The notes: a model not told the origin generated them from the letters alone. Positions 10,442-51,335 are shown, numbered from the stretch's first letter. The stretch: DNA of 64,000 nt from Octopus vulgaris (GCA_951406725.2 OX597814.1:219914001-219978000); one strand, 5' to 3'. Translations and numbers: made by a program.

Positions 10442-12601
10442 CTATAAGTGACTGCCAGGACTTTTAATGTTAGTGGGTGTGTATGTGTGCGTGAAGGACC
10501 AATCGACTTTTGCAAGATCATTATTGATCGCTTCCCAGTTTGCATTGTGGAAATCCATAGTGTCAAATGGATGAACAGGAGGGATGACATTTGTTTTGCA
10601 TTTTCGTCGGTGAAATCTCAGATCACAGAGAACCATGTCATGGTCGGAGAGTAGGGTTTTCTCCACTGTAATATTGTGGATAGTATCAGTGTGATTGCTG
10701 AAAATTAAGTCTAAGACGTTTTTGTGACATCTCGTTGGTTCGAGTACCAGTTGGGACAAGAAGAAGTCATCCATGAAGTCAAGAAGCGATTCCATTGCCT
10801 CCCTGTCAGGGGTTGAGAGAGAAGAACCTGGCGGCAGACTGTTTGTAGACCAGTCAACCCCGGGAAGGTTGAAGTCTCCCATCATTAAAATGTTGTCAGG
10901 TTGACACTGCTGAATGAAACACTTTATGCTGTTGAGGCATTCCTTGAAGCATGGTAGGGGCGTTTGGGGTGGTCTGTAGAGCCCAACTACTGTTAAGTTG
11001 TTGGTTTGACTGAATACAGCGACTGCTTCGCAGTATCCATTCGAAAATATGTTCATGGCTTCTGTTAAGAATGAATCATGGACATAAATGGCAGTCCCAC
11101 CCTTTCTTCTGCCAGCACGATCAGCACGAATGGTTTTGAAATTTTTAACTTTCACCTCGGCTTCCAAGTGGAGGTCACTAAGATGGGTTTCAGTGAGGAC
11201 GAAGAAAGGGATGTGGTTTGGATGGGCCTCGACCCAGTCCTCCAGGAATCTTATCTTCCATTTTTGTGTATTGGTGGAAGGGCTGATGCCTTGGGCATTA
11301 AGCAGAAATGTTGAGGCGAGAGTGGATGGTTTTAATTGTTTTGGTGATTTGTTTATTTGATTGCTTTTTAATGGCATGTGCAGTGGGGTATTTGTGGTGG
11401 ATGGTGGTGGGTGATAGCTCGGATGTTTTTTTCCAGTTCTTTTGCTAGATTCATCATAGCTAAAAAAAGAGGAAGAAGAGGTGGTTTCCTGTCTAGGGAA
11501 CCGCAGGTGACTGTGGCCGCGGCTATTTTTATGTGAGTGGTTATCTTTAAATGTCCGACGAGTCCCTGGGAGATGGGTAAAGGGGCAATCCCTGTGCAGA
11601 CACAATCTGTCTCGCTGGGAATAGCGGCAGATTTGGGGATTCCTTGTTTGAGATATTGGTGGTTGTGGTGGTGTTGTATTATGGTGGTTGCTGTTGTAGT
11701 TTGTGGGGATAGAGCGTTTTGTTCCAGGTAAATGGGTGAATTTGCAGTCTCTATCAGTGCACAGTCTATGGCGAAGAGAATATCTGCAAATGATGGGGTT
11801 TCGAGTGGGTGTGTAGGTGCGTGTGTGTGTGTGAGTTGTGAAAGGTGTAGATGATAGTTTGTTGAAGTTTTGGCGACCTTTGTGACCTGTAGGAGGTAAA
11901 TTCCTTGAGATAGCATTAGTAGTAGTAGTTGTAGTAGTAGTAGTAGGTAGAAGAGATGTTGACAGTGATAATGATTGAGGAGGTCGATTCCAAGACAAAG
12001 ATGTTTGTCGATACATAGTTGGAGTTGTACTAGTAGTAGTAAGCAGAGGAGATGGTGTTGACAATGATGATGATTGAGCTGCTGGGGCAGTGAAAGGAAG
12101 GGGTGGTGCTTCCTGCTGTGTGACCCTGATGACTGGGGGGGGGTCAATCGTTTCGTTTAGCAAATCGGCCATTGTAGATGAATCGAGGAGTGGTTCATCC
12201 TGTTGTTGTTGCCGCTGAGTTTGTTGTTGTTGTTGCCGCTGAGGTTGTTGCTGCTGAAGTTGTTGTTGTTGCTGTAGCTGTTGTTGTTGTTGTTGCCGCT
12301 GAGTTTGTTGTTGTTGAGGTTGTTGTTGTTGTTGTTGCGCCGGTGATGCGTTCGAAGAGAAAACACATCTAAGTTTATCGAAGTGTTTATTTATTAATTT
12401 AAAAGCAACTTCGATTTGTTTTAATTTATTTTGTATCTGCTGTTCAGATCGAGTTTGCAAATGGTGAACTGCTCGTTTAGCAATTTCGTTCAGATACGAA
12501 GCACCTATGCTCTCTGTTTCGGTAAGGCCATGCCATGTGTTGATAAGAACGTCGACTTCATTTTCAGACCAGTTTTTGTTGGATTTTTGGTGGCTAGCCA
12601 T
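10442..12601 (-). CDS. LINE ORF1 (Myb/SANT-like, polyQ, 2x CCCH) in frame with APE endonuclease
   Basis: WSENEVDVLINTW..RSEQQIQNK; CRYSLRHRLCTDRDCKFTH-type motif x2; LLNAQG, LTETHL, GLYRPP, MGDFNLP, LSDH. Confidence 0.85.
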   Translation of the reverse strand: MASHQKSNKNWSENEVDVLINTWHGLTETESIGASYLNEIAKRAVHHLQTRSEQQIQNKLKQIEVAFKLINKHFDKLRCVFSSNASPAQQQQQQPQQQQTQRQQQQQQLQQQQQLQQQQPQRQQQQQTQRQQQQDEPLLDSSTMADLLNETIDPPPVIRVTQQEAPPLPFTAPAAQSSSLSTPSPLLTTTSTTPTMYRQTSLSWNRPPQSLSLSTSLLPTTTTTTTTTNAISRNLPPTGHKGRQNFNKLSSTPFTTHTHTRTYTPTRNPIICRYSLRHRLCTDRDCKFTHLPGTKRSIPTNYNSNHHNTTPPQPPISQTRNPQICRYSQRDRLCLHRDCPFTHLPGTRRTFKDNHSHKNSRGHSHLRFPRQETTSSSSFFSYDESSKRTGKKHPSYHPPPSTTNTPLHMPLKSNQINKSPKQLKPSTLASTFLLNAQGISPSTNTQKWKIRFLEDWVEAHPNHIPFFVLTETHLSDLHLEAEVKVKNFKTIRADRAGRRKGGTAIYVHDSFLTEAMNIFSNGYCEAVAVFSQTNNLTVVGLYRPPQTPLPCFKECLNSIKCFIQQCQPDNILMMGDFNLPGVDWSTNSLPPGSSLSTPDREAMESLLDFMDDFFLSQLVLEPTRCHKNVLDLIFSNHTDTIHNITVEKTLLSDHDMVLCDLRFHRRKCKTNVIPPVHPFDTMDFHNANWEAINNDLAKVDWSFTHTYTPTNIKSPGSHL

Positions 12602-13209
12602 TCTGGTTGATATGTTTTATTAAATTTTATTTTGTTCGTTTGTTTTGTTGATTACTTTTAATTATTTTATTTTATTTATTTTTTTTTAAGGAGAAGTATG
12701 TAGAATTGATTGTACAGAATGTTTGCTGTAATACTGAGAAGTTTGTATTTGAATTATGAGCTTGTAGTTATTTTATCTTTCTTTTCTTTTCTTTCTTTTC
12801 CCTCTTTTTCTAATTTTTAATGTGTGGGTGATCCTTTAGTTTTCAGAAGGTGTTTGAAAATATTTGGTCGTTTGAAAATTATGAAAATAGTTTGTGGTTA
12901 AGGAAAAGTCTACTCACGAGTTGGGAAAAAGCGTGGTTTCAAATATACAGGAATATATGTGATGGTCAATTACGACGAATGTAGCTGTGAAGCTTGCTGC
13001 TGACCGGCGCAGAGAGGAGTAGATATATATATATATATATATGTATATATATATATATATATATATATATATATATATATATATATATATATATATATAT
13101 ATATATATATATATATATATATATATATATATATATATATATATATATATATATATATATATATATATTTTATTTGTTAAATTGTTATTATATATGTATA
13201 TATGTATGT

Positions 13210-48975: not shown

Positions 48976-49675
48976 GTGTCAGGCATTCGTCGTGACAAGA
49001 CGTACTTTTCATAGCTCCCATCCGTAACCAAAGAAGCATATTTCAACTCAAGCCAACAGAAACTCTCATTGTTTTTAGTCCCAGTACTTTTGAATTCTTC
49101 AATTCTACTATTCTACTCTTCTACTACCATCGGAGGATAAATTTATACAAATCTATATACAACCTGGAGAAAGAAATATAAACCAAAACTAAACTCAAGA
49201 CTAGTTCTAAAACTAGTCCCGTGAGTACAATTCTTCCTTCTTTTTTCTTGATCTGTATTAAACACACTGCTCATCCTGATTGTACTAAATACACTGAACT
49301 CTCCCACACACAAGCCACGCATTTCCGAGTATATCGACACAATCTTTTCAACGGTGTATTCACTATTTTACATCAAGCCATCAATAACTGGTGTACATAT
49401 ATATATACACGCATACACATACATATATATATTACACAATACTATCCCTCTGAATATGGCCAATAATATTCAAAAACGCCACTGGGTTGAAAATGAAATT
49501 ACTGCAATGATAAACGCTTGGTTCATTCATCACAATGAAGCTAATGTTTACAGTAAAATAGCTGAGGACTTAGCGAAACAATCCCTTTACAGATCTGTAA
49601 AACAGATCGAAAGCAAAATAAAAGAGATTAAAAGAATATTTCCTATGTTCCACGCGCACATGGCTACACTAGAAG
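48976..49675 (+). mobile_element. 5' end of a CR1-group LINE; ORF1 Myb/SANT-like N-terminus from ATG 49456
   Basis: MANNIQKRHWVENEITAMINAW..RSVKQIESKIKEI aligns with the ORF1 start at 12601. Confidence 0.8.
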
Positions 49676-51335
49676 AAATTATGTTGCAGTGTACGTGTAT
49701 GCTGTGATCTTGAATTGGGCAGGGGACGTATGGCCCGTGGTCCCAGTCTTGGATGAACCTTGAAGCTAATGTTAAGGTCGTTTGTGCAAAGTTGGCGGTA
49801 TATTCTCCACATCGTACAAATGATGTACCGCTCACGGCGACGCTGGAGAGAGTAAAGTTTCAAGGCTTTAAGGCGATCTCAATAATCGAGAGCAGCCATG
49901 ACTTCAATTCGTTTAGTGAGTGCCCTCTGGAGTGACTCAATCCTCGAGATGTTTTGTCTTGTATGGGGAGACCACAGTAGGCAGCAGTATTCGAGGTGTG
50001 GCCGCACAAAGGAGGAGAAAAGTGGTATGATGACACCTTGTTCTCTGGACCGGAAAGTTCTTAAGATCCAGGAACTCATCCTACGAGCTATATCGACCTT
50101 CTTGTTGATGTGTGCACTCCAACTGAGATCGTCATCAACAATTACATTCAGGTCTCTGATATTGTTAGAGGCTGTGAGCGGTTCCCCTGAAGGTAGAGAG
50201 TATGGCTGTTTTAGTGAGGAATTTCTTCCAAAATGCATCAGCTCAAATTTTCCTTCGTTCAGTTGCATTTTGTTTCTGTCTGCCCATTGACTTACAGCAT
50301 ATAGGTCAGACTGGAGTTGAGTTCGGTCTGCTTCTTCATTGACGATTTGCTGGAGCTTAGTGTCATCAGCAAATATTTTCACTTTGCAGTAATGTACGAC
50401 ACTGGAAAGGTCATTTATGTAAATTATGAAGAGTAGCGGACCCAAGACAGTCCTTTGGGGGACACTGCTGGTGACTTTTGCTGGGCTTGAGTGGACTCCA
50501 TCAACTACAACATGTTGTGTTCTATTCGCCAGGAAATACTTAATCCGGTGTAGAACTTTTCCACGGATTCCAACATTTGCCAATTTTGAGAGTAGGATAT
50601 TATGGTCAACCCTGTCGAACGCTTTACTGAAGTCAAGATATATGACGTCAGAGTTCGAACCTGTTCCCAAGGCTTTGAGTACATCTTGTGGTGTAAGAGC
50701 TGTGTTAGACAGTCCCTGCCATAGCGAAAGCCATGCTAATTTGCATTTAGGAGTTTGTGGGTCTCCAGGAAGTCAGCTATCCTTGATCTTAACACTCTTT
50801 CAAACACTTTAATGATGTGGGAGGTGAGTGAGATTGGGCGATAGTTGAGTGCGAGGGATCTGTTTCCCTGTTTGAAAACCGGGATGACTGACTGGGTTAG
50901 AAACTGTTTCGGTATATAACCTGCGTCTAACGAATTTCTCCAGAGGTTGGTCAGAGGGACTGCAAGTTGGTGTCTACATTCCTTCAGGAGACTAGCGGGG
51001 AATCTATCAGGGCCTACAGCAGAGTAGTATTTGACCTTATTTATTGCTGTTACGATGTCAGTGGCAGTGAAGGTTATGTCTAAGATTTTATGTTGGGAGT
51101 CAACTTCGTTCGCTTCTCTTACGTCAATATCAGTGGGAACACTAAAGACAGAGCAGTATTGTTTCTGCAGTATTTCTGCCATTTCTTTAGCATCGTGTTG
51201 GGGAATGCCGTTATCATCAATCAATGGCCCAATGGGTGAGACAGTGGTTCTATGCTTATTTGCATAAGAATAGAACACTTTTGGGTTCTGTTTGATGTTT
51301 TTGATTACCCACTGTTCCTCCACAGCTCTTTGATT
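49672..51335 (-). pseudogene. CR1-group RT fragment, related to 8365-10316
   Basis: NYRPISLTSH, YLDFSKAFDRVDH, FADD, RPHLEYCCLLWSP. Confidence 0.92.

Follow-up and report, generated by a model that had tools for sequence, protein, structure and literature searches.

R2 elements have a single ORF with a restriction-like endonuclease, and the heptamers U_UUU_UUA, G_GGA_AAC and G_GAU_UUU are used as frameshift sites. In CR1 elements, ORF1 is modular and subject to shuffling of its N-terminal domains, with the PHD-type ORF1 representing types III and V, and single-ORF subgroups with an N-terminal PHD are also known (Metcalfe and Casane 2014, PMC4120745). The mode of ORF2 translation in LINEs has been described as an open question (PMC3894237; PMC5009743). 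The Dictyostelium elements TRE5-A and TRE3-A are stated to require a −1 frameshift for ORF2, and TRE5-A targeting is stated to involve contact of its ORF1 protein (ORF1p) with TFIIIB (PMC5911963).

We analysed a window of 64 kb of Octopus vulgaris DNA, the whole stretch considered here, which contains the LINE copies A to D and a separate LINE, E (about 19950-24140), with a Cys-rich, PHD-like ORF1. As an overall explanation, we find it fairly probable that the N-terminal ORF1 domain was exchanged for a Myb/SANT-like one and that ORF1 and ORF2 are fused by frameshifting in these CR1-type LINEs.

LINE copies and their reading frames

Copy A consists of a 5′ UTR, ORF1, ORF2 and a 3′ UTR with the short tandem tail TTCTAAGTTA x2, to which the tails of relatives are similar (Table 1). 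It belongs to a high-copy family, whose read depth drops about 40-fold from the 3′ end to ORF1, matching the 5′ truncation expected of a CR1-group LINE. Profile searches with ORF2 matched PF14529, PF03372 and PF00078, i.e., an AP endonuclease followed by a reverse transcriptase (RT), and we take the elements to be of CR1 type from the motifs LEYC..WSP and YSLQRRRER. The ORF2 frame of copy A is broken near 10461 and 9101, and other copies lack these breaks.

Table 1. Positions of LINE features in the 64-kb window
Feature	Position	Strand	Basis or remark
A, near full-length APE-RT LINE	8281-13022	−	(TA)n on each side
A, N-terminal Myb/SANT-like three-helix domain	12353-12601	−	PF13837, model helices, fold matches
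A, linker: poly-Gln tract and Ser/Thr/Pro-rich part	11820-12338	−	
A, CCCH finger 1 (C-x8-C-x4-C-x3-H, LPGT after)	11732-11788	−	sequence; Atlas lead 0.86
A, CCCH finger 2, copy of finger 1	11573-11629	−	sequence; weak Nab2-like CCCH matches
A, slippery site U_UUU_UUA, codons S-F-L	11461-11468	−	sequence and contigs of other copies
A, ATG of ORF2 frame (11377-11375) and family ORF1 stop TAA (11370-11368)	11368-11377	−	
A, ORF2, AP endonuclease and RT	8365-11308	−	profile search
E, G_GGA_AAC heptamer immediately 5′ of ORF1 stop	21266-21275	+	ORF2 in −1 frame
B, Myb/SANT-like domain interrupted by a stop	44568-44780	+	weak PF13837; open P0153 counterpart
B, CCCH finger (C-x7-C-x8-C-x3-H)	45140-45205	+	
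B, slippery site U_UUU_UUG at S-F-L	45367-45373	+	
B, decayed ORF2 with endonuclease and partial RT	45517-47344	+	ends abruptly at 47344
C, left piece, comprising the 5′ UTR and a Myb/SANT-like domain	48976-49706	+	PF13837; TA-rich array 5′ of it
C, right piece: RT fragment, ~65% identity to that of A	49672-51335	−	tblastn
D, 5′-truncated member of B family	51600-54889	−	slippery site U_UUU_UUG at 54761-54755

An earlier, sequence-only reading had reported three Myb motifs, all of which were found in place (Met at 12601 (−) in A, 44568 (+) in B and 49456 (+) in C), as was the stop it noted in B (TGA at 44706). Its view of 48976-51335 as one relative did not hold, because the Myb part of C lies on the plus strand and the RT part, not colinear with it, on the minus strand. 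Twin priming was rejected for copy C, since this copy lacks its 3′ end and the inverted piece is on the side opposite to that expected. The proposed relative at 51587-54889 indeed represents a member of the B family (copy D, 74% DNA identity to B over 2030 nt), but no Myb domain was seen in this 5′-truncated copy. An open, near-identical version of the B Myb domain is present in the Octopus bimaculoides model P0153.

As assembled, the Myb frame of copy A continues into the endonuclease over 724 codons, and the frame of D is unbroken from the end of ORF1 to the endonuclease. Together with two proteins carrying CCCH fingers in frame with the endonuclease (P0144 and P0130) and the PHD-headed single-ORF subgroups of CR1 (PMC4120745), this would suit Myb families encoding Myb, CCCH fingers, endonuclease and RT in one frame, a reading that we regard as improbable. 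The base at 11462 is absent from other copies, as seen in the contigs of each of four runs and at full depth in two of them; these copies have six T in the run at the slippery site instead of the seven of the window copy. Without this base, the family ORF1 terminates at 11368, yielding a two-frame form and refuting a single ORF for the A family. Thus, the earlier label ORF1 is apt for this family, but not for the copy as assembled. The D frames are joined by an extra GCTG relative to B, and B and D share a Gln/Pro-rich tail in the ORF1 frame with the same stop; moreover, two frames were found in all 19 evaluable relatives. A one-base slip in a T run can create apparent single-ORF CR1 elements, which calls for caution.

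The N-terminal domain of ORF1

The profile PF13837 (Myb_DNA-bind_4, gathering cut-off 27 bits) matched the 90-aa piece of A with 27.4 bits and C with 30.2 bits, but decayed B (X for the stop) only with 14.3 bits (E 0.057), so the Pfam match proposed earlier was obtained for two of the copies; within its 719-aa frame, A scored 21.5 bits, which is under the cut-off. Atlas neighbours of the A domain came from PF13837/PF12776 clusters (0.88-0.90). Its model, built from a 3-row alignment (pLDDT 77), shows three helices (13-25, 32-42 and 53-83), and the best fold matches were DNAJC2 (Z 6.1), TRF1 (6.0) and ISWI (6.0), followed by Zeste (5.6), GT-1 (5.4) and an R2 protein (4.8). These scores are middling, and the top ranks were occupied by Myb/SANT/HTH domains. 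A Foldseek search with the model returned nothing at E ≤ 0.001, and among the sequences of solved structures, the matches to the Myb profile did not exceed chance (best E 0.046). Word-based protein searches with the A Myb region and A ORF1 returned no matches, which are weak negatives. A single-sequence fold of the A domain was poor (pLDDT 64), matched generic helices only and was set aside. The domain is approximately neutral in charge. The third helix of Myb_DNA-bind_4 domains usually shows C and W in the consensus, both of which are absent from the degenerate third helix observed here. Further Myb-type relatives are the Harbinger Myb-like proteins. Altogether, the N-terminal domain very likely adopts a Myb/SANT fold, in agreement with the earlier proposal for a LINE ORF1, and such a domain heads ORF1 in two separate CR1-type LINE lineages.

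None of the 10 scanned ORF1s of marine relatives matched the Myb profile, while 7 of these 10 matched PHD, mostly under the cut-off. In a search of 20 loci and a protein collection, matches to the Myb profile were confined to P0153 and the three copies of the window. The N-terminal helical domain of the marine ORF1s showed no detectable kinship to the Myb domain (probability 0.2), and no relatives were found in collections of viral and prokaryotic genomes. Copy A and copies B/D fall into separate starred groups of endonucleases, A being placed with PHD-bearing lineages; D, P0095 and P0058 are labelled Myb in this grouping by kinship to B, so that A and B are its only true Myb rows. Because the A endonuclease joins PHD-bearing lineages away from B/D, we read the architecture as a domain swap, which bears out the earlier idea of a captured module.

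The CCCH fingers reported earlier for two Myb copies are present (two in A, one in B), visible by eye and under the Pfam cut-offs. They are not as unusual as had been supposed, since ORF1 of the relatives contains three: finger 1 of A has the spacing of their third finger and that of B the spacing of their first. Being common to the relatives, these fingers are ancestral. Thus, the swap would have kept the C-terminal ORF1 half of the clade, i.e., CCCH fingers, x-F-L helix and Gln/Pro-rich tail, and exchanged the N-terminal helical-plus-PHD module of the relatives for a degenerate Myb/SANT-like three-helix domain, as judged from sequence, profile and predicted fold. Table 1 of Metcalfe and Casane (2014) lists no Myb/SANT or CCCH type of ORF1, and the main text does not mention myb, ccch or frameshift (PMC4120745). 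The Myb/SANT-headed ORF1 therefore represents a new type as measured against this one survey table.

The ORF1/ORF2 junction

In all 19 evaluable relatives (11 lineages), ORF2 lies in the −1 frame and is open from an in-phase heptamer at a homologous aligned site (U_UUU_UUA, G_GAU_UUU or G_UUU_UUA); L005, whose contig begins within the overlap, was excluded from these counts. Copies A, B and D carry a heptamer at the same site, and ORF2 likewise occupies the −1 frame in B and E, as well as in A in its majority form. In B, this frame opens 3 codons 5′ of the heptamer and stays open for 51 codons up to the endonuclease. In the relatives, it is stop-free for 67-115 codons, over which the third frame has 3-11 stops, and it closes at most 16 codons 5′ of the heptamer in 18 of 19 loci. 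The first endonuclease motif is not preceded by an AUG in 16 of the 19 relatives, nor in E. The strict pattern X_XXY_YYZ fits only 7 of the 19 loci, and the other 12 (G_GAU_UUU and G_UUU_UUA) were admitted by a relaxed pattern chosen after they had been sighted.

The background amounts to 20 heptamers in 7186 upstream codons, and the chance of a heptamer arising from codon usage is 0.03-0.33 per lineage; because the 11 lineages are related by descent, with a DNA identity of 46-64% around the heptamer, the product of these probabilities overstates their independence. None of 19 control FL/DF dipeptides elsewhere in 11 ORF1s forms a heptamer. The heptamer type tracks the codons: Leu is TTA if Phe is the first full codon, and its codon is free where Asp-Phe yields G_GAU_UUU, while L002-L004 have Arg in place of Leu and retain the heptamer. 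From these sequence patterns, −1 programmed frameshifting appears likely to operate in the clade, and we lean towards its use by the Myb families as well. A frameshift signal at the junction had not figured in the sequence-only reading. FF/GF motifs occur in the ORF2-frame extensions of 8 of 25 proteins; as gene callers place the start at a more downstream Met, this count is not informative.

According to the frameshift model, most ribosomes would complete ORF1 in frame 0 and release ORF1p, which would coat the RNA via its CCCH fingers. At the x-F-L codons, a minority would slip back by one base on the heptamer; their −1 frame would then encode a Ser/Thr/Pro-rich linker followed by the endonuclease-RT, giving a low-level, Gag-Pol-like fusion of Myb-CCCH with endonuclease-RT. 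In such a fusion, the Myb domain (PHD in the relatives) would be tethered to the endonuclease and could anchor it to DNA or chromatin in a general manner. If this is true, ORF1 modules (PHD, Myb, CCCH) could travel on the endonuclease-RT chain, and the N-terminal domain shuffling of CR1 ORF1s would gain a function. The conserved in-phase site in 11 divergent, mostly AUG-less lineages makes −1 frameshifting directly testable.

A stop-restart mechanism would instead produce separate ORF1p and ORF2p, with ORF2 beginning at or near the ORF1 stop, at an AUG or not; the heptamer would then arise incidentally from the conservation of a Phe-Leu helix, and Myb would act within ORF1p only. In A, an AUG 7 nt 5′ of the family ORF1 stop is a possible restart site, AUGs also precede the ORF1 stop of B (45527-45529), and the ORF1 stops of the relatives lie 8-68 nt upstream of the endonuclease motif. 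Precedents are the overlapping stop-start of SART1 (PMC3894237) and mammalian L1, whose ORF2 start is thought to be AUG-independent (PMC5009743). The lack of a stimulatory structure also fits: folding z was below −2 at just 2 of 18 sites, the pseudoknot score beat all shuffles at 1 of 18, and consensus folds were at ~0 kcal/mol, with no conserved hairpin or pseudoknot, which would be expected 5-9 nt downstream, within 80-100 nt 3′ of the heptamer. However, stop-restart leaves unexplained the long stop-free −1 stretch and its closure just 5′ of the heptamer, the codon choice that the control dipeptides lack, and the heptamers kept in L002-L004 despite the change to Arg. We therefore consider it rather unlikely, although it could serve both A and B, given their in-frame AUGs close to the ORF1 stop. 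Transcriptional rather than ribosomal slippage on the T run might also create the fused frame, in line with exactly one extra T in A and with the U6 runs of A, B, D and 7 of the loci; as 10 of the 19 loci are G_GAU_UUU with four T only and the codon phase of the signal is kept, we rate this as very improbable.

Insertion next to (TA)n and comparison with known systems

The sequence-only reading had suggested that the Myb domain guides insertion to TA-rich microsatellites, and an association is seen in the window: 5 of the 8 ends of A, B, C and D lie at most 2 nt from (TA)≥5, although positions no more than 10 nt from such runs make up just 7.4% of the window. The truncated 5′ junction of D lies in TA, which a tail cannot produce, and among relatives (8 tails viewed) all 5 with a visible 3′ end lack (TA)n after it. 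A frameshift fusion would also place Myb on the endonuclease. Nevertheless, the two ends of an element cannot be counted as independent, which leaves 3 of 4 elements, and the compared relatives come from other genomes. Myb-bearing B, which adjoins a Gypsy fragment, is at least 599 nt from any TA run, so that three of the four elements touch (TA)n in this 64-kb window. Non-Myb repeats do so as well, namely, a SINE-like repeat (13195-13615) and ends beside a Penelope element, and the 3′ end of non-Myb E is 50 nt from a TA array. The same pattern would result from an AT-rich preference of the endonuclease or from subsequent expansion. With B outside TA and non-Myb repeats in it, we hold it doubtful that Myb directs insertion to TA, including the strong form in which it recognises (TA)n itself. 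The broadest scenario is speculative and rather unlikely: a clade frameshifting like retroviruses, in which octopus lineages would have swapped in Myb, apparently twice or by exchange, and an R2-like, target-reading fusion would insert into (TA)n and help to build the microsatellite load of the genome.

The LINEs studied here resemble PHD-type CR1 LINEs (PMC4120745) in their APE-RT ORF2 and modular ORF1, the marine relatives carrying PHD as well. With the Myb_DNA-bind_4/trihelix family (PF13837: GT-1; kin folds Zeste and TRF1), the Myb domain shares the W-x3-E-x7-8-W helix 1, a predicted three-helix fold, R[ST]xxQ in helix 3 and a long C-terminal extension, but it is degenerate in helix 3, near-neutral, marginal in score and located inside a retrotransposon ORF1. 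The R2-type protein (8ibw) binds its target with an N-terminal zinc finger and Myb, and the LINE Myb model aligns to residues 147-204 of this protein (Z 4.8). As in R2, the putative frameshift fusion would unite Myb, zinc fingers and enzyme on a single chain, whereas these LINEs differ in their APE endonuclease, CCCH fingers and a putative role of Myb in site choice. The UAAUG stop-start coupling of SART1 and reinitiation in L1 likewise keep the output of ORF2 low on a bicistronic LINE transcript, and the AUG of A adjoins the stop, but most relatives have no AUG and their −1 frame is open far 5′ of the stop. Retroviral and RNA-virus gag-pol frameshifting shares the in-phase heptamers of the X_XXY_YYZ type; unlike viral sites, the LINE site has no conserved downstream structure that we found and is followed by 60-100 dual-coding codons. 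TRE5-A and TRE3-A differ in belonging to the L1 clade, in their amoeba host and in their tRNA-gene targets, but like the LINEs described here, they are of the APE type, and they are stated to need the −1 frameshift for ORF2 that is predicted for our elements.

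The Myb/SANT-like domain and the copies that carry it

The window has a GC content of 38% and is dense in microsatellites and retroelement fragments (see table). The sequence-only reading had placed a Myb/SANT-like domain at the start of ORF1 in three divergent LINE copies, here A, B and C, and the positions of their motifs were confirmed. Against the Pfam profile PF13837 (cut-off 27 bits), the domain of C scored 30.2 bits and a 90-residue piece of A 27.4 bits, whereas B, with its internal stop read as X, remained below the cut-off at 14.3 bits. The domains share 19–31% pairwise identity, with W11, E15, W23, R51, Q55, I56, K59, H73 and L77 common to all three. 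A protein language-model search returned Myb/SANT clusters as neighbours (0.88–0.90, lead strength). The model predicted from the three-row alignment contains helices at 13–25, 32–42 and 53–83 (pLDDT 77), and its top matches among 48,161 chains were nearly all Myb, SANT or helix-turn-helix structures, although with middling Z values of at most 6.1; Foldseek gave no match to the model at E ≤ 0.001. Judging from profiles and predicted structure, we accept a Myb/SANT fold at the N-terminus of these ORF1s as very probable. The net charge of this putative DNA-binding domain is close to neutral.

Features of the window
Feature	Position	Strand	Remarks
LINE A	8281–13022	−	near full length
LINE B	from about 44568, cut at 47344	+	decayed
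LINE C	two pieces, junction near 49670–49710	+ and −	5' UTR and Myb on +, RT fragment on −
LINE D	51600–54889	−	5'-truncated B-family member
B/D-type RT C-terminal piece	51345–51436	+	short, between C and D; weak tblastn match, E 0.62
LINE E	19950–24140	+	near-intact; Cys-rich PHD-like ORF1, poly-Gln tract, (ATT)n tail
Penelope-like fragment	6744–8000	−	RT end and GIY-YIG endonuclease; beside TA array
L1/Tx1-like RT fragment	35703–37919	−	without flanking TA arrays
Gypsy-like fragment	43245–44450	−	decayed RT/RNase H/integrase; adjoins 5' side of B
SINE-like repeat family	13195–13627, 57466–57881, 60832–61291, 26123–26918, 39591–40223		
Inverted duplication	14179–15133 / 17887–18803		about 950 nt, 90% identity, flanking a long TA/CA-rich array
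Long imperfect palindromes	34269–34781, 390–782, 19045–19302, 55903–56210		MITE-like
GC-rich tandem array	63381–64000		62/125-bp period, 94–97% matches, runs past window edge

Copy A encodes, in this order, the Myb domain, poly-Gln, a Ser/Thr/Pro linker, two CCCH fingers, endonuclease and RT, followed by a short tandem tail, and has (TA)n on either side. Contigs of four runs aligned to 8275–12195 showed that its family is very abundant, and that its depth over ORF1 is about 40-fold below that at the 3' end, a gradient that a 5'-truncating LINE should produce. Two frame breaks (near 9101 and near 10461) and a surplus base at 11462 are confined to A or its assembly; at 11462 the family contigs show a gap, with full depth in two of the runs and partial depth in the other two. 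The single frame that A seems to have therefore does not represent its family.

The segment 48976–51335, listed earlier among the relatives, does contain the Myb domain of C, but on the strand opposite to the RT fragment, its putative partner. The motif CATTCGTCGT is common to the 5' ends of A (13000–12960, −) and C (48984–48993, +); it is possibly an internal promoter motif, and its presence in both hints that the Myb piece of C is kin to the family of A. The segment 51587–54889, proposed as another Myb-LINE relative, is the truncated copy D with no Myb domain in view. One end of the SINE-like repeat is similar to the 3' terminus of D (72% across 220 nt, TA flank included), so the B/D family may mobilise these repeats.

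The closest named proteins come from octopuses, suggesting an octopus as the host; they are P0095 of O. sinensis, which clusters with the B/D endonuclease, and P0153 of O. bimaculoides (LOC106870161). The latter begins with a B-type Myb domain (about 84% identical over 81 residues) that is followed by a DUF4600 protein, and represents either a mis-joined gene model or an exonised LINE ORF1.

Relatives, finger domains and TA arrays

Relatives were collected by an endonuclease-alignment scan of metagenome contigs, in which 98 pattern matches resulted in 20 loci. Their ORF1s consist of an N-terminal helical domain, a PHD-type finger, three CCCH fingers, the x-F-L helix and a Gln/Pro-rich tail. 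A PHD match was obtained in seven of the ten longest ORF1s (one above the cut-off) and a Myb family match in none of these ten; a search of all 20 loci in six frames with the Myb profile was likewise without a match. Ahead of the PHD finger lies a conserved helical domain, some 100 residues long (L013:491-802 and kin, alignment A6), which showed no convincing Pfam match and no kinship to the Myb domain. The ORF1s of loci L017:3-3077 and L019:3-2750 are about 900–1000 residues long; they begin with an acidic Val/Asp-rich stretch and contain repeats of a unit made up of helical domain and PHD finger.

The CCCH fingers noted in two Myb copies are indeed present, two in A and one in B. They are not unusual for the clade, since the spacing in A corresponds to the third finger of the relatives and that in B to the first, which marks them as ancestral. 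In an endonuclease tree of 44 rows, A groups with PHD-bearing lineages (97/89) and B/D falls into a different group (99/99); a Myb-headed ORF1 is thus present in two separate lineages. Transfer from one family to another, capture on two occasions and loss elsewhere would all fit the tree. The Myb-headed ORF1 is a real, modestly novel ORF1 type; PMC4120745 lists PHD, RRM, CCHC, transposase-22 and esterase types across 448 elements, and the parts of its main text consulted contain neither Myb nor CCCH nor frameshifting.

The suggestion that these LINEs are flanked by (TA)n holds for three of the four elements A–D, with five of eight ends at most 2 nt from (TA)≥5, but not for B, which carries Myb and adjoins the Gypsy fragment instead. 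Of the whole window, 7.4% lies within 10 nt of such arrays, and non-Myb repeats touch them likewise. Among eight tails viewed in relatives, which stem from other genomes, none of the five with a visible 3' end is followed by (TA)n. The association of LINE ends with (TA)n in the window is real; Myb-directed targeting is unproven.

The ORF1/ORF2 junction

Nineteen loci were evaluable, L005 being excluded as its contig begins inside the overlap. ORF2 lies in the −1 frame in all 19, and in each the first in-phase slippery heptamer past the last upstream −1-frame stop is the same aligned x-F-L site. The heptamer is U_UUU_UUA in seven loci, G_GAU_UUU in ten and G_UUU_UUA in two, the latter two types being admitted by a relaxed pattern defined after both had been seen. 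Among 7186 upstream codons, such a heptamer is found at 20, and none of 19 further FL or DF dipeptides within the ORF1s makes one. The loci represent 11 lineages whose identity near the site is 46–64%; from codon usage alone the heptamer would be expected with a probability of 0.03–0.33 per lineage, values not simply to be multiplied because the lineages are related. The type of heptamer co-varies with the codons: Asp-Phe leaves the following codon free to be Leu or Arg, and Phe-Leu always has TTA for its Leu.

In all but one of the 19 loci the −1 frame is closed no more than 16 codons upstream of the site; past the site it is open for 67–115 codons, a stretch in which the third frame has 3–11 stops. 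With synonymous shuffling, 2–15% of trials on the ten longest representatives of the lineages gave a stop-free frame, and more did so on short fragments. AUG is absent before the first endonuclease motif in 16 loci. Within the window, the S-F-L codons of A (majority form), B and D contain U_UUU_UUA or U_UUU_UUG. A and B might do without a frameshift, as AUGs lie near their ORF1 stops, which we count against frameshifting; D also speaks against it as a single read-through frame, which results from four extra bases. LINE E, unrelated to A and B and on a long branch apart from them, ends its ORF1 with G_GGA_AAC-UAA; its ORF2 lies in the −1 frame and has no AUG ahead of the endonuclease. By its sequence, E is the window's clearest candidate for a frameshift.

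No common hairpin or pseudoknot was found 3' of the heptamer at 18 sites: the folding z fell below −2 at two, the pseudoknot score exceeded all shuffles at one, and consensus folds were near zero. The order of the domains, the layout in two frames, the in-phase heptamer kept across lineages and the open −1 frame are observed directly; the junction gives a strong comparative signal of putative −1 frameshifting, apparently without the usual RNA stimulator. Most ribosomes would then produce ORF1p, and a few would slip to yield a Myb-CCCH-linker-endonuclease-RT fusion, which would keep the enzyme scarce and couple it to the N-terminal reader domain. Myb here and PHD in the relatives may be swappable anchors to chromatin or DNA; that Myb reads (TA)n is speculative.

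In the parts consulted, PMC13343379, PMC11203168, PMC5203782 and PMC9115989 describe no Myb ORF1 or frameshift for the CR1 group. We found nothing on Myb in APE-LINE ORF1s or on CR1-group frameshifting in the literature covered; Repbase, Dfam, older papers and supplements may hold earlier mentions. The sections seen of PMC3894237 discuss stop-start, reinitiation and IRES and term ORF2 initiation an open question. PMC5009743, in the portion available, favours novel initiation for L1 and names frameshifting for HeT-A, and PMC5911963 has TRE5-A and TRE3-A of Dictyostelium requiring a −1 frameshift.
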